Positions 7,119 through 22,433 of a stretch of 64,000 nt of DNA are shown piece by piece; the first letter of the stretch is position 1; each line of letters starts with the position of its first letter. Made by a program: the position numbers and the translations under genes. The DNA is taken from assembly GCA_963727445.1 (NCBI GenBank), contig CAVSGI010000004.1:220873-284872 (forward strand). Reading direction: 5' to 3'. Source of the DNA: an uncultured delta proteobacterium (GTDB lineage Bacteria; Myxococcota_A; Polyangia; Polyangiales; B10-G4). Under the pieces are notes generated by a model. The model searched no databases. It saw only the letters and a list, made by a program, of their open reading frames with translations, and was not told the DNA's origin.

Positions 7119-7203
7119 GGCTCTGGGGTACACGTCCCCGCCGCGCCTCACAAGGATGCGCGATAGTTGACCTTCGAACTTGGACATCCGTACAGTCCTG
7201 CGC

Positions 7204-9672
7204 ATGAGCGCAGGTACCTTCGACTCCGACCCACAGGCCTTTCTCCAGCGGCAGAAGAAGCCCTGGGCAGCCGCCCGAGGGCTCTCGGCGGTGTTGCGCA
7301 AGTGGCATCGAGACGGGGGCTATCAACGCGCGTTCGTCCTCGACCGTGAGCTTCCCGGTCGCGAGGGCCGCAGCGTCCCGATCCCCGAGGATCTCGCCGA
7401 GGGAGTCGCGGCCGCGCTCTCGAAGCGAGGCGTCGAAGCGCTCTACGATCATCAAGCGCGTGCCTACGCGCTCGCCAAGGGTGGGCGCGACGTGGTGATC
7501 GCGACGCCCACCGCGTCGGGCAAGAGCCTCTGTTACAACCTGCCCGTTCTCGACGCGCTGAGCGCGCGATCCCGAAGCGCGCGCGCTCTATCTCTTCCCG
7601 ACCAAGGCGCTGTCGCGCGATCAAGAGGACGCGCTGCGCGCGCTCATGCGCGACGCCGGGCTCGCGCACGGCGCGATCACCTACGACGGAGACACGCCGG
7701 GCGACGCGCGGCGCGCGGCGCGGGAGCGGAGCGGCGTGCTGCTCACGAACCCCGACATGCTCCACGCGGGGATCCTTCCGCATCACGCGAGCTGGGCGCG
7801 CCTCTTCGCGAACCTGCGCTACGTCGTCATCGACGAGCTCCACAGCTACCGCGGCGTCTTCGGCAGTCACCTGGCGAACGTGATCCGGCGCCTGTCGCGC
7901 ATCGCCGAGTTTCACGGTTCGAAGCCCGTCTTCCTCTTCGCGTCGGCGACCATCGGCAATCCAGGCGATCACGCGTCGCGGATGATCGGGCGCGACGTGA
8001 CGGTCATCGACGAGAGCGGTGCTCCTGCGGGGCCGCGGCGGGTGATGGTCTACAATCCGCCGGTCATCAATCCGGAGCTCGGGATCCGGCGGAGCTATCT
8101 GAAGTGCGCGGTGCAGGTCGCGGCGGATCTGGTGCGCGCCGACGTCTCGACCCTTGTCTTCGGTCAGTCGCGCAACGGGGTCGAGGTGATGCTGAAGTAC
8201 CTCCGCGACCGCCTCGCGGCCGACAAGATCCCGGCTGACGTGATCCACGCCTATCGCGGCGGCTACCTGCCGGACACGAGGCGGCGCATCGAGGCGGACC
8301 TGCGCGCCGGCAAGATCAAGTGCGTCGTCGCCACCAACGCCCTCGAGCTGGGGATCGACATCGGCAGCCTCGACGCCGTGGTCTGCGCCGGCTACCCGGG
8401 CAACGTCGCCGCGCTCTGGCAGCGTTTCGGCCGCGGCGGCCGGCGGGCGACGGAGAGCCTCGCGGTGCTGGTCGCGTCGAGCGATGCCCCTCGACCAGTA
8501 CCTGGCGAGCGACCCGGAGCAGATCGTCGGCGCGCCGGTGGAGCACGCGCGCATCGATCCGGACAACGTCGAGATCCTCGTGCAGCACCTGAAGTGCGCC
8601 GCCTTCGAGCTGCCCTTCGAGGAGGGTGACGCGTTCGGCGACGTGCCCGCAGAAGCGGTGAGCGACGCTCTGGGCTTCTTGGCGAAGCACGCGGTGCTTC
8701 ATCCGGCGCCCGGTGCCTCGGGCAAGACCGTCTACCACTGGGCGACCGACGCCTACCCCGCCAACGCACGTGTCGCCTGCGCATCGTCGGCTGGGACAAC
8801 TTCGTGATCATCGACCTCGAGACGCGACGAGACCATCGCCGAGATGGACTGGCGCGAGCACCCACACCATGCTGCACGAGCAGGCCATCTATCAGCACGC
8901 GGCGGAGCAGTACCAGGTCGAGCGCCTCGACTTCGAGAACCACAAGGCCTTCGTGCGCAAGGTCAAGCCCGACTACTACACGACGGCGATGACCCACACC
9001 AACGTGAGCGTCTACGAAGAGGAGGACGGCGCCTTCGTGAAGCTGGGCGGAAGCGTTCGGACTCGGCGGCCGGTGCCGGCGAGGTGAGCGTCGTCGAGAA
9101 GGTCGTCGGCTACAAGAAGATCAAGTTCCACACCCACGAGAACGTCGGCTACGGCGACGTGCACCTGCCGGAGATGCAGATGCACACGACGAGCTTCTGG
9201 CTGACCTTCCCCGAGGAGCTGGTGCGCTCGCTTCGGCGTGCCGCGGGCCGCGGTGGTGCGACGCGCTGCGCGGTCTCGCGAACGCGATGCACACGGTGGC
9301 GTCCGTCGGGCTGATGATCGACCCGCGCGACCTCGGTGCACAGCCTCGGCGATCGCAAGCGACGAGGGCGGCACGCCCGACAAGGCGCCCGGCGAGGGGC
9401 CCGGCTTCGACCCGACGATCTTCCTCTACGACCACATCCCCGGCGGCGTCGGCCTCGCGCCGCGGCTCTTCGGGTCGAGCGGGAGACGCTGCTGCGCCGC
9501 ACGCGGCGCCTCGTCGAGAGCTGCGCGTGCGAAGCGGGCTGCCCCGCATGCATCGGGCCCGAAGCCGGCATCGGCACCATCCAAGAAGGACCTGCGCAGA
9601 AGAAACCGGTCGCGCGAAAAGCCCTCGCCCTCGACGTCCTCGACGCCATCGGCGTGACGGCGATCGCACTGA
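7204..9672 (+). CDS. DEAD/DEAH-box helicase with C-terminal DUF1998 Zn domain (MrfA/YprA/SftH family); multiple apparent frameshifts
   Basis: Pieced across frames: TPTASGKS, DELH, SAT, HAYRGGY, ATNALELGIDIG, QRFGRGGR, FLYDHIPGGVG, CACEAGCPAC. Confidence 0.85.
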
Positions 9673-11135: not shown

Positions 11136-12260
11136 TTGTCCCGTATGCTCCGGGCCGTGCGCCGAAAGGCAAAGGCCACCCTCATGGCAGCCCTCTTGCT
11201 GCTGACCTGCACGACGGCGCAGGCGGACGACGTCCTGGCCGGGATCTTCGTCCGCGGCGACACCGATACCACCACCGTCATCAGCCCCAAGGCGGAGCTC
11301 ACCGCGGGCATCGTCGACGACTCGACCACGGTGACCGCCGGCTACGCCGCCGACATCTGGACCAGCGCGTCCATCGACATCCGCACCATGGCGACCCAGG
11401 CCGTCTCGGAGCAGCGCGACGAGCTGACCGCGGGCGTCGCCAGAGAGATGACCGACGTCACCCTTCGCGGCGGCTACCGTTTCTCGCACGAGCCGGACTA
11501 CGTCTCTCACGGCGGCACGCTCTCGGTGGTTCAGCGCCTGGCCGAAGGCGCCGCCACCATCGAGACCGGGCTCACCGCCGCCTTCGATACGGTCGGCCGC
11601 TCGGGGGACGAGTCCTTCTCTCGCGGGCTCTCCACCGTCGGCTTTCGGCTGGCGTATACCCAGGTCCTCGATCCATCGACGGTGCTACAGGGCGCTTACG
11701 AGCTGATGCGGCGCGACGGCTATCAGGCGAGCCCCTACCATTTCGTCGGGCTCGGCGGCGACGGCCTCTGCAACGGCACCGCCCAGCTCTGCGTGGCCGA
11801 GAGCCATCCATCGATCCGCTGGCGCAACGCCTGGGTCGTGCGTCTGAGACGCGCTCTCGGCGATCAGTGGTCGACCGGCCTCGATTACCGCTTCTATGTG
11901 GACGATTGGGGGATCGCGTCGCACACCGCGAGCGCCCAGGTGATCTGGCTCCCCGACGAAGATTCGCAGGTCATCGCGCGCTACCGCTTCTACTGGCAGG
12001 GCGCCGCGGACTTCTACCAATCCGTGTACGCGATGACGGCCGAGCGGCAAAGGTACGTGACCCGCGATCGCGAGCTGTCGCCCATGAGCACCCAGCGCCT
12101 GGTGCTGGCCTACCAGCGCACCTTCGAGCTCACCGAGGCCGGACCCGCCACCACCATGACCCTGTCGGTCGGCGGCACCATCCTCGACTACCGCGACTTC
12201 AACGGTCTGGACACGGTGGCCGCGCTCGACGCCTCCCTTTCGCTTTCGGTGGAGCTGTGA
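11136..12260 (+). CDS. DUF3570 family outer-membrane beta-barrel protein
   Basis: Signal peptide; DTTTVISP, DIWTSASIDI, SHEPDYVS, YRFYVDDWGIASHT, RYRFYWQGAADFY, TRDRELS. Confidence 0.8.
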   Translation: MSRMLRAVRRKAKATLMAALLLLTCTTAQADDVLAGIFVRGDTDTTTVISPKAELTAGIVDDSTTVTAGYAADIWTSASIDIRTMATQAVSEQRDELTAGVAREMTDVTLRGGYRFSHEPDYVSHGGTLSVVQRLAEGAATIETGLTAAFDTVGRSGDESFSRGLSTVGFRLAYTQVLDPSTVLQGAYELMRRDGYQASPYHFVGLGGDGLCNGTAQLCVAESHPSIRWRNAWVVRLRRALGDQWSTGLDYRFYVDDWGIASHTASAQVIWLPDEDSQVIARYRFYWQGAADFYQSVYAMTAERQRYVTRDRELSPMSTQRLVLAYQRTFELTEAGPATTMTLSVGGTILDYRDFNGLDTVAALDASLSLSVEL

Positions 12261-13651
12261 CGCGGGCGCTCCTACTCTCGTTGGTCCTGCTCTCGGTCAC
12301 GTCCTCGGCCTTCGCCCAGGAGCTTCCGCCACCGGAGTTCGAGGGGGCCGACGAGGGCGACGATCTACCGCCGCCGGAATACGGAGACGAAGGCGATGAG
12401 GGCGGGCTGCCGCCGCCCGAGTACGGCGACGAAGGAGACGGTGGCGCGGGCGCAGAAGGTGACGGGGATGCGATGGAGGGGAGCCCCGAGCAGGAGATGG
12501 AGGAGTTTCAGGCGCCGAAGGTCATGGTGGTGGCGGCGCCGCGCACCCCCCGCGAGCTGTCGCGCGAGGTGAACGACATCCTCTCCGCCGTCGGTCAGCT
12601 CGAGAGCCCCGACGCGTTCGTTCGCGAGGCGCGGGCGCGCGGCTATCCCCCCGACCGCGGCGAGGCCTTCGAGGTCCTCTTGCCCGAGATGGACATCGCC
12701 CTGGTGCTCGTCATCTCGGTGGTGCGCGAAGAGGGCGAGCGCCGGCTCCGGGTGGAGTATCGCGACGGGCGAATCGGTTTCGCGCTCCTCGAGGAGTCTC
12801 ATCCTCTCGCCGGCGATCGCCTGCGCGCCGAGTCGCGCGAGCGCATCGTCTCCGAAGCGCGTCTGGCGCTGGCCGCCATCACGCGCCCCCCCGGGGCTCC
12901 CGCACCCGAAGGGTTGCCCGAAGCAGCCGCCGACTCCCGCGAGGGCCCGCCGGCCGAGCCGGGCGCGGCGGTACACGTCTTTCTCGGCGCGGGCTTCGGC
13001 TTCGGGATGCGCTCCTTCCGGTTGCCGACCTCGGTGGGCATCGTACGCCTCACCACCGATCCCTTCCCGGCCGTCTCCCTTCGCTTGGGGCTCGACTACG
13101 AGCCCACGGCTCAGGGGCGGGTCAACCTGCGCGGCGAGCTCTCCTACGTCACCTCGGTCGGCCTCGAGGTCACCGACATGCGCACCGACATGACGACCCT
13201 CAAGACGCCGTCGCGCAGCCAGCGCTTCGACGTGCGTCTCGGTGCGACCTACCGACTGGCGGACGGTCCCGATGGTGTCTCCCTCGGTGGCGCGTTGGGC
13301 TTCGGCGTGCGCGCTTTCGATTCAGAAGCGGCGGTCACGCTCCCCGACTACGCACTGAGCGGCTTCTCGCTCAGGCTCAGCTTGATCGTTCCGCTCCTCG
13401 AGGGGCGCGTGATCATCGCGCTCCATCCCGAGCTCGACTGGGTGGCCTTCGTCGACGACGGGCTCACCCAGGAAGGCGTCGCCGGCAGCGCGGTGGCGGT
13501 CGGCGCCGAGGCGAGGCTCCTCGTCGGCATCGCCGGTCCCTTCTACGCCGAGCTCTACTATCGCGAGAGCCACGCCTTCTTGAGCTCGGACCTGGGCGAA
13601 AGCGGAGACGTCGAGCGCTACGCGACCGTCGGTCTCCTCTACCGCCCGTGA
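12257..13651 (+). CDS. Secreted protein with acidic LPPPEYG repeats and a probable C-terminal beta-barrel
   Basis: GTG start overlaps the DUF3570 stop; signal ending SSAFA; three LPPPE(F/Y) repeats; amphipathic strands ending GLLYRP. Confidence 0.65.
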   Translation: MTRALLLSLVLLSVTSSAFAQELPPPEFEGADEGDDLPPPEYGDEGDEGGLPPPEYGDEGDGGAGAEGDGDAMEGSPEQEMEEFQAPKVMVVAAPRTPRELSREVNDILSAVGQLESPDAFVREARARGYPPDRGEAFEVLLPEMDIALVLVISVVREEGERRLRVEYRDGRIGFALLEESHPLAGDRLRAESRERIVSEARLALAAITRPPGAPAPEGLPEAAADSREGPPAEPGAAVHVFLGAGFGFGMRSFRLPTSVGIVRLTTDPFPAVSLRLGLDYEPTAQGRVNLRGELSYVTSVGLEVTDMRTDMTTLKTPSRSQRFDVRLGATYRLADGPDGVSLGGALGFGVRAFDSEAAVTLPDYALSGFSLRLSLIVPLLEGRVIIALHPELDWVAFVDDGLTQEGVAGSAVAVGAEARLLVGIAGPFYAELYYRESHAFLSSDLGESGDVERYATVGLLYRP

Positions 13652-13658
13652 CCCGTGC

Positions 13659-14396
13659 TCAGAAGGAGGCGCCTGCGCTGATGTAGAACCAGGGGATGAT
13701 CCCCCAGCTGTTGGGATCGGGGTTCGAGAGCGACAGCCCCGGCCCATAGAGCGCCGCGGCGCCGACACGGAAGTTGAAGCCGCCGTTCATCGGGTGGATC
13801 CGGTAGCCGATGTGGGCGTTGCCGATCGCGCTGGCGCCAGAGCCGGTCGCGGTCAGACCGCCGGCGCTCGCCGAGCCGTCCGTGAATATCATCGTCGCAC
13901 CGGCGCCGATCTCGAGCACGTGAGAGCCGGCCCTCAGGCCCAGGTACTCCGCCGTCAGTGGCACGGTGACGTACGACACGTTCGAGCTACTCGTACCCAC
14001 GTTCGAGCCGTAGGACATGTAGCTGAAGCCGATGCGAACGCCGAGCTGGTCGAAGAGCAGGCGCTCGTAGTTCACCGAGTAGAAGAGGCCTGCGCCCAGG
14101 CCCTCGACGAAGATCGTGTTCGGCGCGGGGTGCTCTTCTTCGACGTCGGTCGGCACGACGACCGTTCCGGGTGTCGCCGCCGGTGTCGCGGCAGGGGTGG
14201 TGGTCGCGGTGGTCGGCCCGGTGGTGGTCGTCTGCGATCCCATGGGCTGCATCACTGGAGCCGAGCTCTGTCCCGTCGTCCCCGTTCCCGCTTCCGAACC
14301 TTCTTCGTCGGTGGCGTCGGGATCGGCGGCGTAGGCGGTCGCGGTCTGTGCGAGTAAGAGACCGGCGGCGATCATCGGTAGTGACTTCGTGAGCAT
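13659..14396 (-). CDS. Small outer-membrane beta-barrel protein
   Basis: RBS GGAGG; signal ending TAYA; VEGLGAGLFYSVNYER; C-terminal ISAGASF (terminal Phe). Confidence 0.75.
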   Translation of the reverse strand: MLTKSLPMIAAGLLLAQTATAYAADPDATDEEGSEAGTGTTGQSSAPVMQPMGSQTTTTGPTTATTTPAATPAATPGTVVVPTDVEEEHPAPNTIFVEGLGAGLFYSVNYERLLFDQLGVRIGFSYMSYGSNVGTSSSNVSYVTVPLTAEYLGLRAGSHVLEIGAGATMIFTDGSASAGGLTATGSGASAIGNAHIGYRIHPMNGGFNFRVGAAALYGPGLSLSNPDPNSWGIIPWFYISAGASF

Positions 14397-14425
14397 GTTC
14401 CCTCCAAGCGTTCCGCGGCGGAGGG

Positions 14426-14441
14426 AGCACCGTTCGTGCCA
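14426..14441 (-). promoter_or_regulatory. sigma54 (-24/-12) promoter
   Basis: Minus strand TGGCACGAACGGTGCT, with GG-N10-GC spacing, 30 nt upstream of the ATG at 14396. Confidence 0.7.
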
Positions 14442-14561
14442 TCACGCTCTTGCCGAGATCCTCACGGGTTCGCGCGTGTCGGTTCGAAACCTACAGAATC
14501 GAAACATCACACACGTAACCACGAGTTCACGCCAAAGAGGCGTGGAGGTGAACACGAAGGT

Positions 14562-16940
14562 TCAGCGACGCGATCGACGTCGAAAGAAAAGCGAAGAGGT
14601 GATGAATACGGCAAACGCCAGCGCGTCGAAGCGCGTCTCATCGCGACCGACGATGATGCAACCGCAACCGCCATCGCCCATCGGCGGTGCAACGGTGCCG
14701 GTGTCTGCATCGGGCGCGCCACCGTCGGCGCGGGGCACCCTCGCATCGGATGTGCCTGCGTCCTCGGAGACGCAGGTCGTGGCGCCCGCACCTCCGCTCA
14801 GCGTGATCGCGAGCCAGCCTTTCGGGCGATTGAACCCGCGATCCGACAGATCGTCCCGCTTCTGTGCGACGGCGAGGAGCGTCGTCGTCTCGCCATCGGC
14901 GACGTCGAGGCAGAGCGTCAGGTCCGTTCCGTCGGACTCGGAGACGAGCGCACCGTCCCGATAGAGGCGCAGCACGTCGACGCCGATGGCTTCGGGATCC
15001 ATCGCGTGGATGGTCAACGCTCGGGCGTCCGCGATCGTGTCTCCATCCGCGGCGCCGTCGATGCTCACCACCGGGCGCGTGGCGTAAGGCGCCAGCATCG
15101 GATCGCCGAGCACCAGGTTCTGCCAGTACACGTTGGGCAGGTTGCGGTGATAGGCCTCGGCGAGGGTGGCGCCGTCGACGTATTGAGTGATCAGCGATCG
15201 CGCGGGGAACACCGAGTTGAGTGGCTCGTCGGTGGTGCCGTGAACGCCGCCCACACCGCGCGCGACCCAGCGCGCGATCGAGACCTGTCTCTCCATGGAG
15301 GGGTCGTCGAAGTTCTCGGGCACCGCGCCGAAGCTCGTCAGGTTGTCGACGAGCGCGCCCGGGGCGAAGTCGTTGCCCTCGATGGTGTCGCCGATGGTCG
15401 CCGTGCCGGTGAAGAAGGCCGCGAGGGTGTGACCGGTGAGGTCGGCGTCGAAAGGCACTTGGCGCGCATCGGTGTAGCCGCGATCCATCAGGTCGCTGAT
15501 CACGCGCGGGTACTGGCCGTCGAGGGCCCCGCGCGCGGGGTCTCTTCCTTCCATGAAGAGGAACTCTCCTGCGGCGCCGCCCATCGCCTCCGCTTCGAGT
15601 GCGCTGTCGAGGAGCATCTCCGCCTCGCTGAAGGAGCGCCCGTGGAGCATCGTCACCAGCACCGGGCGGAAGTCGACGCCGCCAACGCTCTCTGCCCAGC
15701 CCGGCTCGAAGAGCCCACTGTGGAAGGGGTTGGCGAAGCGGGCGGCGTAGCAGGGCGTCCCGGTGCAATCCGCCGTGACGCCAGGCGCCTGACCGAGGAG
15801 GGCGGCTCCGTCCATGGTCGTGTCCCAGAGCCCGAGCGCGGCCGCGAGCGACACCCGTCGCGTGGTCGCCCCGTCCGGGATGCGCACCCTGAGGGGCACG
15901 CCGCGGATGACGAGCACGGCCTCGATGCGGTCGCGGACGCCTGCGGCCTCGAGGCACGCGCCCAGGGGCGTCAGGATCTGGTCGCGAAAGTCCGCGAGGT
16001 CGATGTCGATCACTGTGTCGATCGACAGAGCGCAGACCTGCCCCATGGGCACGTCGCGTTCGCGCGCGTAGCGCTCCGCGAGCGCGACCGACTCGGGGAC
16101 GTCGGCGTTCGCCAACACCGCGGTCGTCGCGGGGCCGGGGACGGCGTAGGCCGCCGACGCGTGGGTGAGGGTGATGGCCGACAGGGCGAGGGCACCCGCG
16201 AGCGCCCGCCGGCGCCGCAACAGGAAGAGGAGCACCAGCATCGCGAGCGCCCAACCGCCCTCTGGCGGCAGAGCCGTCGTCGCACAACCGCCCGCGACGA
16301 TCGTCTCCGGCGGGGGCGCGCCTTCGACGCGGAGCGATTGGGAGATCACGCCGACGCGATCGCCCACGCTGGTGCCGTTGCCGTTGCCGCGGACCTCGGC
16401 TGCGTGGATCCACGCCGTACCCGCGCTCGGATCGGAAGGCGCGGTCCAGGTGAGGCGGCTGGTCCGCGCGCCACAGGCCCGCGCGATGGCGAGGGGCCGA
16501 CCATCCGCCGTGGTCTGGAGCTCCGTCGCGCCCTCGGGGAGCATCCCCCCCTCGGCCCGGCAGCGCTCCTCGTCGGCGATCTCGCTGTCGGGCAGGAGCG
16601 AGAGCGTCCCGATGGCCCCGCCGTCTCGGTCCGTGACCTCGAGCACCATGCCTCGATCGCCATCGCTGAGGCCCATGTCGAAGGAGAGCTCGTAGCTCGC
16701 GCCCGGCCGGTAGCCTGCCTCGGGCAGCCCGCGCACCTCGAAGGGGATGTCGGGCTCGCCGTGACAGACGGCGCAGGTGAACCCGTCGTTCGGCGATCCG
16801 GTGAACCACCGTCCACCGCCCCCGCCCGCATCGGCGGCGAGGTCGAAGCGCCCCGGATCGGAAAAAGCGTGCGCCCGCGCCGGCCCGAGCGCGACCGTGA
16901 GCGCCGCGATCGCGACGAGAGGCAGCGCTCTCATGGGCAC
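14562..16940 (-). CDS. Reeler-like/CxxCH domain, internal MYXO-CTERM-like segment, TIGR03790-like domain and C-terminal MYXO-CTERM
   Basis: Signal ending AHA; FTCAVCH; TWTAP...GNGNG (reeler-like); VLANADVPESVALAERYARER, GALVDNLTSFGA, GTTDEP, LGDPMLAPY (TIGR03790-like); terminal GGCGC-hydrophobic-RRRSRR. Confidence 0.75.
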   Translation of the reverse strand: MPMRALPLVAIAALTVALGPARAHAFSDPGRFDLAADAGGGGGRWFTGSPNDGFTCAVCHGEPDIPFEVRGLPEAGYRPGASYELSFDMGLSDGDRGMVLEVTDRDGGAIGTLSLLPDSEIADEERCRAEGGMLPEGATELQTTADGRPLAIARACGARTSRLTWTAPSDPSAGTAWIHAAEVRGNGNGTSVGDRVGVISQSLRVEGAPPPETIVAGGCATTALPPEGGWALAMLVLLFLLRRRRALAGALALSAITLTHASAAYAVPGPATTAVLANADVPESVALAERYARERDVPMGQVCALSIDTVIDIDLADFRDQILTPLGACLEAAGVRDRIEAVLVIRGVPLRVRIPDGATTRRVSLAAALGLWDTTMDGAALLGQAPGVTADCTGTPCYAARFANPFHSGLFEPGWAESVGGVDFRPVLVTMLHGRSFSEAEMLLDSALEAEAMGGAAGEFLFMEGRDPARGALDGQYPRVISDLMDRGYTDARQVPFDADLTGHTLAAFFTGTATIGDTIEGNDFAPGALVDNLTSFGAVPENFDDPSMERQVSIARWVARGVGGVHGTTDEPLNSVFPARSLITQYVDGATLAEAYHRNLPNVYWQNLVLGDPMLAPYATRPVVSIDGAADGDTIADARALTIHAMDPEAIGVDVLRLYRDGALVSESDGTDLTLCLDVADGETTTLLAVAQKRDDLSDRGFNRPKGWLAITLSGGAGATTCVSEDAGTSDARVPRADGGAPDADTGTVAPPMGDGGCGCIIVGRDETRFDALAFAVFITSSLFFRRRSRR

Positions 16941-17401
16941 GTCACCATCCGCCCGTGCGCCCAGTCGCGGATCGTGACGAAGTCGGGATCCTCTTTGCTT
17001 CGATAGACGTCCCGGCCGAGCTCGTCGCGACCCATGTGCCCGGCGCCGCCCGCTTCGATCGCCAGCGGCTTGCGCAGCAGCGGCGCGTCATCGACCGATT
17101 GCGCCCCGCCGAGCATCGAGCGCGCGCGATCGTAGGTGAGAGCGATCTCGTCGTCGGTGGGGCCGTCGAGCTGCGGGGTCATCGGATCGAGGCGGGTGCG
17201 CCCCGGCGCGAAGACCTGAAAGGCCCGATGCATGGTGCCGTGGCACGCAGGGAAGCCGCAGTCCCGCGCCAAGACCGGATAGACCTCGAGCTCGAAGGCG
17301 CACTGGTCCACGGGTGGGGGATGGGGCTCCGGGGCCGCGCCGACACAGGCGGTCGCCAGGGAGCTGAGGGCCAACAGAAGGAGGACGACCGAGCGCGACA
17401 T
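16931..17401 (-). CDS. Lipoprotein with atypical CxxxxCH motif (PSCyt-like cytochrome c domain)
   Basis: Lipobox ATAC; FELEVYPVLARDCGFPACHG; LLRKPL...GHMG...IRDW. Confidence 0.65.
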   Translation of the reverse strand: MSRSVVLLLLALSSLATACVGAAPEPHPPPVDQCAFELEVYPVLARDCGFPACHGTMHRAFQVFAPGRTRLDPMTPQLDGPTDDEIALTYDRARSMLGGAQSVDDAPLLRKPLAIEAGGAGHMGRDELGRDVYRSKEDPDFVTIRDWAHGRMVTCP

Positions 17402-17467
17402 CGCCGCCGATATGAAACGACGCCCCTCGGCTTTGTGCAAACGGGGGTGTGGAGTAGAGTAGGGCGC

Positions 17468-17683
17468 GTGAAGGCCTTCGCCCTGCTCCTGCTCGCGGCT
17501 CTCGCCGTCGCCGCCACCGGCTGCGTCACCGTCAGCCCGTGGGAGCGCGAGGTCCTCGCTCGCCCCGACATGAGCTTCGAGGGCAACCGAACGGTCAGCA
17601 CCGCCGAGGGCCACTCCTCCGAGACCCGGGAGGGCTCGGCCGGGGGGCTCGGATCCGGCGGCGGCGGCTGCGGCTGCAACTAG
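17468..17683 (+). CDS. DUF4266 domain lipoprotein
   Basis: GCVTVSPWEREVLARPDM...REGSAGG.G.GGGGCGCN, the family signature. Confidence 0.9.
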   Translation: MKAFALLLLAALAVAATGCVTVSPWEREVLARPDMSFEGNRTVSTAEGHSSETREGSAGGLGSGGGGCGCN

Positions 17684-17835
17684 ACACGCTCCCCCGAGGT
17701 CCCAGCGGGGACTGATGACTCCAATCCCCATCCGGGTCTGGGGATCCCCCAACGGCTGGTGACCCCGTGCCCCAAAAGGGCCCCCGAGTGCGGACGCGAG
17801 GCCGCAATCTGGCGTGTTAAGGAGCCTGTGAGCTT

Positions 17836-17851
17836 CGGCACGATGGCTGCA
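17836..17851 (+). promoter_or_regulatory. sigma54 (-24/-12) promoter
   Basis: CGGCACGATGGCTGCA, with GG-N10-GC spacing, upstream of the 17871-22433 operon. Confidence 0.6.
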
Positions 17852-17870
17852 CTTACAGCCACCAGAGCCG

Positions 17871-19046
17871 ATGATTGGACCCCGCACACTCACTGCCGTC
17901 CTCGCCTTGGCCCTGGGCTGTAACGCCGGAACCATCGCGATGGAGCGGCTTCCTTATGACGGTGGAGCCGACTCCGGTTCCACCATGGACGAGGACGCCA
18001 TGGTCATCGAGGAGATGGCCGCGCGCGACCTCTTCGATAGCACTGTGCTCCCACTCCTCGAGTCGAACTGCGTCTCGTGTCACGGCGAGAGCGGCTCGGT
18101 GGTGGGATACCGCTTCCTCACGCCGGATCCCGACATCTATACGTCGGTCACCAGCTGGCCGGCGCTCGTCAGCCGCGCCAATCCGACCTCTAGCCGCATC
18201 CTGACGCTGGACAGCACGCACCCGGGCCCCGAGTGGAGCACCACCCAGGCCGACACCGTGCAGCGCTGGCTCGAGCGCGAGGGCGAGGAGTATGCCGGCA
18301 GCGGTGAGGAGCCCGACCTCATCACCGACGCGAAGGTGCTCGAGGCAGGTCTCAACCTCTTCCCCCTCGACGTCCTCGGCCTGCCCGGGAGCCAGCTCAG
18401 CCTCACCGCCGAGCCCACCCCCGCGGGTTGGTACCTGTCCAACATCGAGGTGAACGCCGGCGCCGACGGCGTCCGCATGTCGCATCCGGTCATCATCCAA
18501 TGGGTCGACGGAGACGCGACGGTCGATCCGAGCGATCGCTTCGCGGGCATGGACGTGGTCGCCCCCGCCTACACCCGGGTCGCCGTGGGCGGCGGCACCG
18601 CGAGCCTCTCGGGTCTGCCCGACGGCGCGAGCATCAGCTGGCACTTCGACGCCGCGGGCCCCGAGTCGGGTGGCACCGGCGGTGGCGACGGCGGCGTGGG
18701 CGGCGGTGACGCCGGCATGGGCACGACCACCGGTGGCTGTACGGCGCTTCCCTCCTTCACGGCGAACGTGCGCCCGCAGCTGATGATGTACTGCACGAGC
18801 TGCCACGACGGCAGCAACCCCGACGCGATGTCGGCCGTCGACATGTCGAACGTCGCCGATAGCAGCGACTCGGCGCAGGCGCTGGCCTGCGGCCAGATCC
18901 TCTCGCGCTCCCGCGGCGCGACCCCGTCCATTCTCCTCGCGCCCGATTCCACTGGGGGTCTGGCGCACCCGTTCCGGCTGAGCTCGTTCCAGCTGGCGAC
19001 GTTCAGCGCGGCGATCACCGATTGGGTCGCCATGGAGGCTCCCTGA
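17871..19046 (+). CDS. Di-heme c-type cytochrome lipoprotein (PSCyt1-like domains)
   Basis: Lipobox ALGC; FDSTVLPLLESNCVSCHG and FTANVRPQLMMYCTSCHDG. Confidence 0.75.
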   Translation: MIGPRTLTAVLALALGCNAGTIAMERLPYDGGADSGSTMDEDAMVIEEMAARDLFDSTVLPLLESNCVSCHGESGSVVGYRFLTPDPDIYTSVTSWPALVSRANPTSSRILTLDSTHPGPEWSTTQADTVQRWLEREGEEYAGSGEEPDLITDAKVLEAGLNLFPLDVLGLPGSQLSLTAEPTPAGWYLSNIEVNAGADGVRMSHPVIIQWVDGDATVDPSDRFAGMDVVAPAYTRVAVGGGTASLSGLPDGASISWHFDAAGPESGGTGGGDGGVGGGDAGMGTTTGGCTALPSFTANVRPQLMMYCTSCHDGSNPDAMSAVDMSNVADSSDSAQALACGQILSRSRGATPSILLAPDSTGGLAHPFRLSSFQLATFSAAITDWVAMEAP

Positions 19047-20290
19047 TGAAGCGACTTCTCGAGGCCCTCGCGCTCACCGGTGTCATCGCCGGGCTCGGCT
19101 GCCAGGGTGGCGTGTCGGGCTCTGCGCGCGACGCGGTGCCGGATGCGACCCCCGACCCCGCGAGCGATCCCGGGACGTCCGACACCCCCGCCGACGGCGT
19201 GGTCGCCGACGACACCACCGGGACCGACGACACCACGCCCGACTGGGCGGCCGGTGAGCTCTCGCCCGAGTGGCAGGGGCGCCTCGACGACCGGGACCTC
19301 GACTACGGCGCCGCGCTGCGGACCGCGTCCCTTCGTCTGCGCGGCGACCTGCCGACGCTCCTCGAGATCCGCATGCTCGACGAAGCCACCGACCAGGCGT
19401 CGGTCTACCGCTCCTTTCTCGAGTCCTTCATCACCGACGATCGCTTCATCCCGCAGATCCGGAACTACTTCCGCGACACCTTCAAGATGGGCCGCGGCGA
19501 CCTCGACACCGCCCCGCTCTTCGCCGCCGAGCTCGCGGTGGAGGGACGGAGCATGACCGAGCTCTTCACCGCGACGAACGGCACCTGCCCCACGATGCAG
19601 GACGAAGCCATCGTCCCCGCCGATTGCGACAACGGCGTCCCCACCCACGCCGGCATCCTCACCAACCCGGCGGTGATGCGGCACTTCAACAGCAACCTGG
19701 CGTTCCGCCGGGTGCGCTGGGTGCAGGAGACCTTCGCCTGCAACGCCTTCCCCGCCGAGCTCGGCGACCCCATCGACATCGGAGGCGCGGCTCCCTACAC
19801 CGCGCCGTGGCCCTTCGAGAGCATCGCGGGCGCCGACACGGGCGGGCGCATCGACTTCCACGACATCGAGAGCGTCACCTGCGCGAACTGCCACGCGACG
19901 ATGAACCACCAGGCCCCGCTCTTCGGACACTTCGACGCCGACGGCCGCTGGAGCGACTCCATCGCCGTCACCCTGCCGAGCGATGGATCGCCCCTGGTCG
20001 CCATGTCGGACTGGCTCCCGGACGGCGAGACCACCGCGTGGCGCTTCGGTGTGCCGGCGGCCGACCTGCCTGCCTTCGGCGCAGCGATGGCCGCGGACCG
20101 CGACGTGCACCGCTGCACCGTCTCCCGCGCCTGGAACTGGGCGATGGGGAAGGGAGACATCGTGCTGACCCGCGCGGCGGTTCCGGACGAGGTCATCGAC
20201 ACCATGGTCGACGACTACATCGCATCGGGGCACCGCATGGACCAGCTGCTCCTCGCCATCTTCACCTCCGACGACTTCGTCAACTTCTGA
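19046..20290 (+). CDS. Lipoprotein with DUF1549/PSD-like domains and a CxxCH motif
   Basis: Lipobox GLGC; LRTASLRLRGDLPT, AGILTNP, FRRVRW, CANCHATMN, RCTVSRAWNWAMG; TGATG coupling. Confidence 0.65.
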   Translation: MKRLLEALALTGVIAGLGCQGGVSGSARDAVPDATPDPASDPGTSDTPADGVVADDTTGTDDTTPDWAAGELSPEWQGRLDDRDLDYGAALRTASLRLRGDLPTLLEIRMLDEATDQASVYRSFLESFITDDRFIPQIRNYFRDTFKMGRGDLDTAPLFAAELAVEGRSMTELFTATNGTCPTMQDEAIVPADCDNGVPTHAGILTNPAVMRHFNSNLAFRRVRWVQETFACNAFPAELGDPIDIGGAAPYTAPWPFESIAGADTGGRIDFHDIESVTCANCHATMNHQAPLFGHFDADGRWSDSIAVTLPSDGSPLVAMSDWLPDGETTAWRFGVPAADLPAFGAAMAADRDVHRCTVSRAWNWAMGKGDIVLTRAAVPDEVIDTMVDDYIASGHRMDQLLLAIFTSDDFVNF

Positions 20291-21030
20291 TGCTGGCCAT
20301 GATGATGAAGAACACCCGATACCTCGTCCTCGCCGCGCTCCTGGTCGCCTGTGGTCAGGGCAGCGAAAGTGGTCGCGACGACTATCTGTCGCCGACCGAT
20401 CCCGAAGCCGCCGCCGCCACCGGCACGGCGCCGGGGAGCGAAGAAGGCGGCGCCGCCAGCGGAACCGAGAGCACCTTCGACCACCCCGCGGCCCTCGGCG
20501 GCTCGGCGGTGACCGCGCGCGAGGCCCTCGAGCGCATGGCCGAAGAGGGACCCCCCGGCTACACCGCGCGCATCCACGGCTGCCGGAAGATGCCGTACCG
20601 CACCCTCGGCCGCGTGCTCGCCGGTCTCGGCGTGAACCTCGACGCAATGGGTGAGACCGACGCTGGCAACATGTGGCGCCGGTCGGACCAGGCGCTCGGC
20701 GCCGCCAACTACGGCGCTCGCATCGGCGAGAGCACCGAGGTCACGGTCTCCGTCGCCTCGCGCACCTTCGACATCCTCGTCCAGGCCGCCCCGGAGGTCA
20801 TCGCCAACCTTCCGAGCGTCGAGCGCTGCATGATCGGTGGCGTCGGCGTGAGCGTCTTCGACGGTGCGGGTCACTGCACCCGTGATGGCCTCAGCTGCCT
20901 CCTCGGCGAGCCCGCGAGCGATGTCGTCGTCGCCCAGTGTGACGACGTGGTGCGACGCGCCGCCGACCCCGCCCAGGGGCAGGCAATCGCGGTCGCCTCT
21001 CTTCTCTCTGCTGCCCACACCTGCGAATGA
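20290..21030 (+). CDS. Cys-containing hypothetical lipoprotein
   Basis: Lipobox LVAC; several Cys, ending AAHTCE; TGATG coupling (start could be a later Met). Confidence 0.65.
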   Translation: MLAMMMKNTRYLVLAALLVACGQGSESGRDDYLSPTDPEAAAATGTAPGSEEGGAASGTESTFDHPAALGGSAVTAREALERMAEEGPPGYTARIHGCRKMPYRTLGRVLAGLGVNLDAMGETDAGNMWRRSDQALGAANYGARIGESTEVTVSVASRTFDILVQAAPEVIANLPSVERCMIGGVGVSVFDGAGHCTRDGLSCLLGEPASDVVVAQCDDVVRRAADPAQGQAIAVASLLSAAHTCE

Positions 21031-21041
21031 GGACGAAAGAC

Positions 21042-22433
21042 ATGAGCACCAAGAAAGAAAGAGAGAGAAAGCGTCGCGTCGGGCGCCGTGCGCTCATGAA
21101 GTGGAGCCTGGCTGCGGGTGCGGCCTTCGGTCTGCCCCAGTGGAAGGTCTTCGAGGTCCTGGAGATGACCGGCGGCAAGGCCCTCGCCGACGACGCCTCC
21201 TGCGCGACCACAAACCGCTCGGTGCACATCGTCGCCGGCCGCGGCGGCTTCGCCTGGTTCACGCTTCTGTGGCCGCACAACGACATCGCCGCCGCCCGCA
21301 ACTCGAGCTTCGCCTGGCACGCCATCGGCGAAGAGATGATGGCGGAGGACACCCACAAGCCCCTCACCCTCGGGCCCCACACGCCGTGGCAGTCCCTGCC
21401 CGGCGGCCGTCAGGTCACCTGCCTCATGGGCGGCACCAACGAGACGCATACCAACACCCCCGCGACGACCGAGCGCGTCTCCATGAACAACGGGCTCTTC
21501 GCCACCTGCGCGGCCATCCAGACCGCCAGCCCCACCGTGGTGCCGGTCATCGCCGTGGACGACGCGCCCTACCGCGGCGCCGAGGGCTCGCCCCGCGTGG
21601 CGCGCGTCGGGAGCGCGAACGACATCGTCTCCCTCTTCAACGCCGCGGCCTCGCGCGCGGGCGGCCTGCTCAGCAATCCTCAGAACGCCGAGCTCTACTC
21701 GAACGCCTACAGCGCGTTCCTCAGCCTTCGCGCCGCCGCCGGTCGCGAGACCATGCGCGCCGGACACGCGGCGGCCACGCGCTCGGCGCAGCTCCTCGGC
21801 CAGAACCTCGCCGACCGGCTCCGCCCGACCGACGAGGACTTCGCCCGCTACGGCATCGACGCCGGGAGCCGCACCGAGAACCGCAACCTGGCGCGCGGTC
21901 TCATCGTCACCGCCAAGGCCTTCTCCCTCGGTCTCACCTCCTCGGTGATCCTCCCGGCGTTCCGCGACGACCCCCACGGCGCCTTCGCCGACATGGGGAA
22001 CCTCACCAACACCGTGAGCACGTTGCAGCGCACCCTCGACGCCTTCATGGGCGACCTCGACGCGGTCGACGACCCGACCTGCTCGGGCACCTCCATCGGT
22101 GACAACACCGTGATCTCCATCCACGGCGACACCCCGAAGAACCCGCTCCAGCGCGCCAACTGGCCCGACGGAACCCCGGGCAACGCCAACTGGACCTACG
22201 TCCTCGGCGCTGGCTATCTGAAGACCGGCTGGTTCGGCGGCATCAATCGCGGCGGCAACGTCACGACCTACAATCCCACCACCGGCGAAGACAGCGGCTC
22301 GAACACCGGCAACACCGCCGAGTCCTCGGCCGCCGCTGTCACCTACTGCGTGGCCCGAGGCGACATGCGCCGGGTGAACGACTTCTACAGCGGTGCGGAC
22401 ATCAACGGGCTGGTCTCGGACGCGACGGTCTGA
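21042..22433 (+). CDS. Tat-exported DUF1501/DUF1552-like protein
   Basis: Twin-arginine VGRRALMKW; DPHGAF; IGDNTVISIHGDTPKNP; WPDG; located after PSD/cytochrome genes as in DUF1501 clusters. Confidence 0.6.
   Translation: MSTKKERERKRRVGRRALMKWSLAAGAAFGLPQWKVFEVLEMTGGKALADDASCATTNRSVHIVAGRGGFAWFTLLWPHNDIAAARNSSFAWHAIGEEMMAEDTHKPLTLGPHTPWQSLPGGRQVTCLMGGTNETHTNTPATTERVSMNNGLFATCAAIQTASPTVVPVIAVDDAPYRGAEGSPRVARVGSANDIVSLFNAAASRAGGLLSNPQNAELYSNAYSAFLSLRAAAGRETMRAGHAAATRSAQLLGQNLADRLRPTDEDFARYGIDAGSRTENRNLARGLIVTAKAFSLGLTSSVILPAFRDDPHGAFADMGNLTNTVSTLQRTLDAFMGDLDAVDDPTCSGTSIGDNTVISIHGDTPKNPLQRANWPDGTPGNANWTYVLGAGYLKTGWFGGINRGGNVTTYNPTTGEDSGSNTGNTAESSAAAVTYCVARGDMRRVNDFYSGADINGLVSDATV

Follow-up and report, generated by a model that had tools for sequence, protein, structure and literature searches.

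A sorting tag followed by a second signal peptide probably resolves one myxobacterial open reading frame into two anchored envelope proteins

The stretch of DNA considered here (the window) comprises 64,000 nucleotides of contig CAVSGI010000004.1 from an uncultured delta proteobacterium of the Myxococcota lineage (GenBank assembly GCA_963727445.1, positions 220,873 to 284,872). On its minus strand, the open reading frame (ORF) 14562..16940 probably encodes a single Sec-exported precursor that, judging from sequence comparison, myxosortase and signal peptidase I would cut into two membrane-anchored proteins. The ORF specifies 792 amino acids (aa) from a GTG at 16940 or 790 aa from an ATG at 16934; we number residues from the ATG, with the in-frame GTG lying two codons 5′ of it. 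In order, the 790-aa product has a signal peptide, a reeler/cytochrome f-like domain with a CxxCH motif (product 1), an internal MYXO-CTERM tag, a second Sec signal (AxA↓VPGP), a TIGR03790-family domain followed by an Ig domain (product 2), and a terminal Cys tag. The internal tag and the second signal together are referred to here as the hinge. We also lean toward the view that this hinge is a general and reusable joint in Myxococcota, its Arg run serving at the same time as the n-region of the following Sec or lipoprotein signal, and that two host proteases would resolve it fully; fusion would then be nearly free, with genes, whether operon neighbors or unrelated, fusing and splitting again, and in the present case cutting would free a cytochrome f-like surface heme protein and a TIGR03790 protein, both lipid anchored.

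The junction between the two halves (16292..16143) is read in a single frame without a stop, with the letters quoted in the first-pass annotation of this DNA, and its longest homopolymer is 3 bases. That annotation had also stated that the junction holds no Met, which is incorrect: Met232 (ATG, 16241..16239) lies within the first helix and is followed in frame by GTG (16235..16233) and by TTG (16220..16218), the last directly before RRRR. The GC content at third codon positions is 0.78 to 0.95 along the gene and 0.90 over residues 206 to 264. The internal tag exceeds the cut-off of the MYXO-CTERM model TIGR03382 (22.3 bits against 15.85) and sits 547 residues before the protein end, not at the C terminus like ordinary MYXO-CTERM tags.

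Among the best 120 of the 258 homologues found, eight relatives besides the query carry the same fusion at 96 to 99% coverage and 50 to 75% identity (JGI, NCBI, ENA, and Logan sources); two of these were read at the DNA level (L002/L023, which are one sequence, and L101). Cys217, Arg240, Ala262, and Ala264 (the last two at positions −3 and −1) are invariant in all nine fused proteins while the intervening hinge residues vary, and the pattern is therefore conserved beyond chance. Across the same nine proteins, the distance from the Cys to the predicted cut is 46 to 52 residues, the 12-residue hydropathy of the tag helix is 1.8 to 3.3, and the net charge of the loop is +3 to +5. Their second signals all have a basic n-region, an h-region, and small residues at −3 and −1, with an h-region hydropathy (mean, 2.52; range, 2.19 to 2.94) to be set beside a median of 2.54 in 92 free-standing homologues. 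Export through the Tat pathway via RRRR was rejected, as RR is not conserved and the basic runs of P0006, P0012, and P0014 lack it. In one hinge (L093:1653-4196), Ser/Pro/Thr/Arg repeats enlarge the cytoplasmic loop to ∼60 residues; judged from this case, loop length seems free to vary.

The first-pass annotation had called for a check of whether homologues carry the halves fused or adjacent, and the eight relatives were fused, with adjacent, separate halves in none of 155 loci. This outcome bears directly on the idea that an indel joined two neighboring genes in an error-prone assembly. The window does contain apparent frameshifts elsewhere (helicase region, 7180-9657), a second hinge gene of this genome (contig C2) is itself broken upstream, and among the public runs listed, which included no RNA, two DNA runs carry 5 to 7% of words, with the junction spanned by none of the read pieces listed, an outcome without weight either way. 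Eight independent full-length homologues fused in the same register, two of them seen as DNA, and the complete lack of adjacent-but-split halves among the 155 loci nevertheless leave an assembly artifact barely credible.

Where the second half stands alone, it begins with an ordinary signal peptide that ends at the homologous xPGP. The nonfused second halves number 111, of which 100 have at least 12 residues before xPGP; Ala occupies position −1 in 98/100 and position −3 in 92/100. The Ala residues also speak to whether the hinge is cut at all. Left uncut, the product would be a three-helix inner membrane protein holding two periplasmic domains together; a tight hairpin could shield the sites, and cleavage of this protein is for now a prediction. 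Such a hairpin would, however, not need invariant Ala residues at −3 and −1, and OmpA-domain partners, DUF3570 partners, and lipobox-like Cys sites all follow the same hinge. OmpA/TraB-type barrels must leave the inner membrane, and DUF3570 is, we infer, a barrel as well. We consider a permanently uncut protein highly improbable.

The two-protease pathway that we favor would proceed as follows. The first signal peptide would be removed and the CxxCH domain delivered to the periplasm, as is established for the family. The internal tag helix would then halt transfer with RRRR still on the cytoplasmic side, after which the following hydrophobic stretch would restart export, producing a helical hairpin. 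Signal peptidase I would cut at AYA↓VPGP and so give product 2 the N terminus of its free-standing relatives. Cys217 would be modified and myxosortase would cut after it, as shown for TraA and MXAN_4924, so that product 1 becomes lipid anchored and a hairpin of ∼47 residues is discarded. Product 2 would be held by its own terminal Cys tag, and both products may be surface bound via type II secretion. Because each half keeps its own signal, the fusion would alter the mature products little, and the hinge may be regarded as a tolerated, reversible gene joint. Both proteases are encoded in this genome: a myxosortase on contig C14 scores 119.3 with the core model NF040914 (cut-off, 100), and three signal peptidase I genes score above cut-off. 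The M. xanthus-type myxosortase model NF040593 stays below its cut-off in this genome (88.5 against 180). The hairpin topology and two-protease cleavage put forward in the first-pass annotation are thus well supported by comparison, through the conserved fusion, the homologous signal of free-standing relatives, the many partners, and the presence of both enzymes. Its term "self-splitting" is inaccurate, because the cutting would be done by proteases of the host cell. The 1:1 ratio that it proposed would follow from synthesis as one chain, but selection for that ratio is unsupported: in most genomes the halves are not linked, and they have apparently split again.

Several observations weigh against this pathway. 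The internal tag scores only 17 bits with TIGR03901, under the cut-off of 20, and the terminal GGCGC tag is matched by neither MYXO-CTERM model (TIGR03901 or TIGR03382). In the text of PMC11980579, MrtX cleavage is demonstrated only for tags at or near the C terminus, and loss of MrtX leaves the surface display of TraA partly intact; an uncut tag can therefore still work in part. Finally, all three distinct fused loci with DNA carry an in-frame start-type codon no more than 6 codons from the Arg run, and such a codon stands directly before the run in 2/3 TIGR03790 fusions versus 7/80 terminal tags. The earlier identification of the internal segment as MYXO-CTERM accordingly holds with one model and falls short with the other; at relaxed thresholds, TIGR03901 (E up to 0.5) matches 7/9 fused proteins and TIGR03382 (E 0.5) only 1/9. 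For the second, terminal tag proposed there, G-C-x-C is invariant and is accompanied by a hydrophobic stretch and an Arg end in 12/12 aligned proteins, but neither model matches.

The subthreshold TIGR03901 score and the C-terminal position of known MrtX substrates would both suit a single cut, in which signal peptidase I frees product 2, myxosortase refuses a tag with a second helix behind it, and the hairpin keeps product 1 in the inner membrane; the opposite case, with the myxosortase cut alone, would count here as well. Invariance of Cys217 among variable neighbors argues the other way, as does an analogous archaeal enzyme that cuts a central tag. In addition, a peptide from the N-terminal part of MXAN_5598 (residues 741-755 of 2699), a protein with an internal tag, was present in 3/3 vesicle preparations (PMC4158809), which fits release from the inner membrane without proving it or discriminating between the models. 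We regard a single cut as unlikely.

The start-type codons raise the prospect that product 2 comes mainly from an in-frame start, the TTG before RRRR opening a perfect Met-Arg-Arg-Arg-Arg signal peptide, with the long chain mostly delivering product 1. This TTG is one of only three among the gene's 76 Leu codons; L101 has an ATG at the same place, and L002 has a GTG 4 codons earlier. Over a wider set of hinges, however, the 6 codons leading up to the basic run include ATG, GTG, or TTG in 13/34 hinges versus 27/80 terminal tags, and 12/34 hinges have no start-type codon either there or in the linker, so reinitiation cannot be a general rule. Several fused proteins have Thr, Gly, Trp, or Ser immediately ahead of the basic run, and the only Shine-Dalgarno-like word in the junction, ∼18 bases before the ATG, is not usably spaced from the TTG. 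We find an internal start a quite unlikely main source of product 2; even then, the long chain would be needed, because no separate stop codon ends product 1.

The 155 loci also inform the history of the fusion. They yielded 124 second-half and 35 first-half ORF matches, and the two occurred together only as the fused ORF (4 loci, 3 sequences). The first half lies within a DUF3570 cluster in 23/35 loci, as in the window, and neither the first half nor any of the other window genes tested was present in the 119 second-half-only loci. This count indicates that the TIGR03790 gene was imported into the DUF3570 cluster and was not a habitual neighbor; stop-loss between habitual neighbors was rejected for this pair on the same grounds. 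In a quick tree of first halves (41 rows; duplicates L001, L002, L023, L101, and L078 left out), the nine fused ones fall into one group (support, 90) that also contains the free-standing L082. In a quick tree of second halves (28 rows chosen from 60), the fused ones are not monophyletic (P = 2e-61 by the approximately unbiased [AU] test), with the free-standing P0009, P0010, and P0013 nested among them; P0009 was confirmed as free-standing in DNA (L022), and P0010 and P0013, on short contigs, are presumed to be so. The simplest reading of these trees would be one fusion followed by splits, and two separate fusions are not favored over it. We dropped P0126, which lacks a tag, as a probable chimera and did not count L086 as a hinge, because a clear helix is absent from its second part, which also has a Met of its own. 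Two further relatives stand apart: a TIGR03790-like homologue of 1,285 codons (L065:4498-8352) has no Cys tag at its end, its tail being presumably of the IPTL type, and this genome carries a free-standing first-half paralogue with an ordinary terminal tag (C13:455906-456934).

To see how far the hinge extends beyond TIGR03790 partners, we read the best 150 of 369 first-half representatives (50% clustering), classifying hinges by eye. Eighteen continue through the tag, a basic run, and a signal-like stretch, and their partners are DUF2271-type lipoproteins (8; 7 by Pfam), DUF3570 (4), DUF4266 (4; 2 by Pfam and 2 by visible ends), TIGR03790 (1), and one other. The signal matches the needs of the partner: A-x-A precedes DUF3570 and TIGR03790, and a lipobox-like Cys precedes DUF4266 and DUF2271 proteins. 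Before recognition of the last two DUF4266 cases, 134 representatives had been put aside, and 126 of these end in a Cys-hydrophobic-basic tag.

Within this genome, a tag model that we built from 80 of its terminal tags detected terminal tags in 101 ORFs and gave 4 nonterminal matches. A signal-like stretch comes after each of the three best nonterminal matches (on contigs C8, C4 [the present gene], and C2), and the fourth (14.8 bits) has the look of a polytopic protein. On contig C2 (L021:6587-8827), in a gene that this assembly interrupts upstream with an apparent frameshift, the tag is followed by a lipoprotein signal, and the protein belongs to a phylum-wide family of about 1,200 to 1,600 aa. 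On contig C8 (L252:1507-6597), a 1,697-codon frame has a tag, a lipoprotein-like signal, and MopE-type repeats. The C2 family was matched, in many cases weakly, in 80/121 genomes of the phylum. Of the 30 best loci of this family, 25 were judged to carry the tag and a lipoprotein signal in a single frame, 4 received no score, and 1 (G033) was split. In G033 (L255), the two genes have an overlapping stop and start, and the second begins with its own Met lipoprotein signal. Coupled genes of this sort thus show a way in which such fusions can originate; an overlap also exists between traA and traB (PMC3325183).

A hinge profile of 29 rows matched 132/151 genomes, which is not a rate, as the profile also matches terminal tags. 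We picked 40 regions whose matches span most of the model without a stop and added 16 returned loci; 54 rows run on for at least 50 residues. Pfam domains were found in 22/46 scanned run-on parts, with OmpA in 7 and also thrombospondin-3, FG-GAP, MopE, amylase, DUF3575, and DUF4266. One 2.8-kb region (L245:2-2814) holds three hinges, two in one frame, with the next ORF ending in a fused DUF4266 unit.

Product 1 was described in the first-pass annotation as a reeler-like/CAVCH domain. The reeler part agrees with fold matches (Foldseek E, 5e-6; VIA Z, 8.8; Atlas Reeler clusters, 0.95 to 0.96), but with the choice-of-anchor V model NF041895 the domain scores 36.8 to 40.4 bits, under the cut-off of 42, and we class it as similar to that family, not as a member; the homologue P0125 passes at 48.7. 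Cytochrome f matches with a Foldseek E of 3.5e-5 and the same VIA Z of 8.8 (root mean square deviation, 3.5; 142 aligned), on a model with a mean pLDDT of 49.9 in which residues 61 to 205 are mostly at 60 to 89. CxxCH is present in all of the best 150 of 369 first-half representatives and in 40/40 family members, and in most first-half homologues it lies 30 residues after a Phe/Tyr mature N terminus (16761-16865 in the window). Cytochrome f ligates its heme at the N terminus. Product 1 resembles it in the beta-sandwich and in the placement of CxxCH relative to a Phe/Tyr N terminus, yet it remains below the NF041895 cut-off, and reeler scores equally. Product 1 would probably be a surface heme c protein.

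The TIGR03790 assignment of product 2, also made in the first pass, is firm (103.8 bits; cut-off, 67), and 9/9 fused proteins match. By sequence, product 2 has no relative in the Protein Data Bank (best E, 0.11), in the Atlas it falls only into unnamed or TIGR03790 clusters, and our literature search found no paper that names the family. The full-length structure model has a mean pLDDT of 49.9 and is poor over the TIGR03790 domain; a single-sequence model of the second half reached 42.9.

The gene lies in an envelope cluster (11136-22433) that comprises DUF3570 (11136), DUF4266 (ends at 17683), a cytochrome-like lipoprotein with two CxxCH motifs (17871), a DUF1588/DUF1585 protein (19022), and two more genes. 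Much of this order is retained in L023, L089, and L091. A scan for promoters and terminators gave no signal exceeding shuffles. Between 7180 and 11074, the genes for a DEAD/DEAH helicase and an RNase H-like exonuclease are split across several frames, probably through indel errors in the assembly. Coordinates within the ORF are collected in Table 1.

Table 1. Features of the fused ORF in window coordinates
Feature	Coordinates	Strand	Basis
Whole ORF, 790 aa	14562..16934	-	ATG at 16934
First signal peptide, residues 1-23, predicted cut AHA↓F	16866..16934	-	Sequence; A-x-A then Phe/Tyr in 39/40 family members
Product 1 domain, residues 24-205, choice-of-anchor-V-like beta-sandwich (reeler/cytochrome f-like)	16320..16865	-	NF041895, Foldseek, VIA, Atlas
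CxxCH motif, residues 54-58, possible heme c site (predicted)	16761..16775	-	Present in 40/40 and 150/150 homologues
Internal MYXO-CTERM, residues 215-243: GGC (Cys217), helix Trp228-Leu239, RRRR 240-243 (16217..16206)	16206..16292	-	TIGR03382; Cys217 and Arg240 invariant in 9/9 fused proteins
Second Sec/signal peptidase I signal (predicted), residues 240-264: shared Arg run as n-region, h-region, cut AYA↓VPGP	16143..16217	-	Ala262 and Ala264 invariant in 9/9
In-frame ATG (16241), GTG (16235), and TTG (16220), possible internal starts for second half	16218..16241	-	Sequence
Product 2 main domain, TIGR03790 family, residues 265-604	15123..16142	-	TIGR03790, 103.8 > 67
Ig-like domain, residues 621-715	14790..15074	-	Pfam Big_7 E 0.02, below cut-off; VIA Z 8-9.4 to Ig/FN3-like domains
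Terminal Cys tag: GGCGC, hydrophobic stretch, Arg-rich end	14565..14672	-	Sequence; G756, C757, and C759 invariant

Should the hinge indeed be cleaved, two envelope proteins from one ORF would be routine across an entire phylum, with consequences for annotation, localization prediction, and proteomics. DUF3570, OmpA-type, and lipoprotein partners would be hidden inside longer ORFs, and myxosortase would act independently of a C-terminal tag position. If the hinge is general, many long myxobacterial ORFs annotated as single proteins are two or more. It could also serve as a small tool for the codisplay of two proteins.

To our knowledge, secreted polyproteins resolved by signal peptidase are textbook matter for viruses and rare in bacteria. 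Signal peptidase cuts the cytochrome b-c1 precursor FbcH of Bradyrhizobium japonicum and viral envelope polyproteins. Like the present gene, these make one chain with an internal signal after a membrane anchor and are released by signal peptidase; unlike it, they have no sortase-type tag and no lipid anchor, and FbcH is one isolated instance and not a joint that recurs. With MrtX sorting of TraA and MXAN_4924, our protein shares the Cys motif, helix, Arg run, and N-terminal signal, and its genome has ∼100 tagged ORFs and a myxosortase; it differs in that the tag lies far from the protein end and the Arg run leads into a second signal. MrtX cleavage of TraA depends on the Cys and also occurs with a C-terminal FLAG and in E. 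coli (PMC11980579).

The first-pass annotation knew of no described example of such an arrangement, which is too strong as far as the tag is concerned. Internal MYXO-CTERM tags, called rare, are already known from MXAN_5598 of Myxococcus xanthus, for which gene fusion is the suggested origin and the N-terminal part is proposed to be processed and anchored (Guo, Haft and Wall, mBio 2025, PMC11980579). A second signal after an internal tag was found in no paper, and our literature searches found the tag-plus-signal hinge described nowhere. The main text of PMC11980579 mentions neither a second signal peptide nor a signal peptidase cut for MXAN_5598, though its Table S1 may show one, and a term search of the main text of 10.1101/2023.06.07.544157 returned no "internal," "fused," or "polyprotein"; passages of PMC6372800 and 10.64898/2026.02.05.703148 contributed nothing further.

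In Haloferax volcanii, the natural fusion HVO_0405 carries a central PGF-CTERM that is cut in vivo by ArtA (10.1101/863746). It resembles the present gene in having a midprotein sorting tag that stems from gene fusion and is cut by its own sorting enzyme; it differs in that the enzyme is an archaeosortase, the fusion is strain specific, and a second export signal is not described in the passages on it. MXAN_5598 is closer, with one ORF, a secreted N-terminal part, an internal MYXO-CTERM, and a second exported unit, but it combines an adhesin with barrel/OmpA domains, and a Cys tag on both halves is a feature of the present gene. For proteins of the MXAN_5598 kind, the hinge, if cut, would offer an explanation of how the second half is reexported from the cytoplasm.

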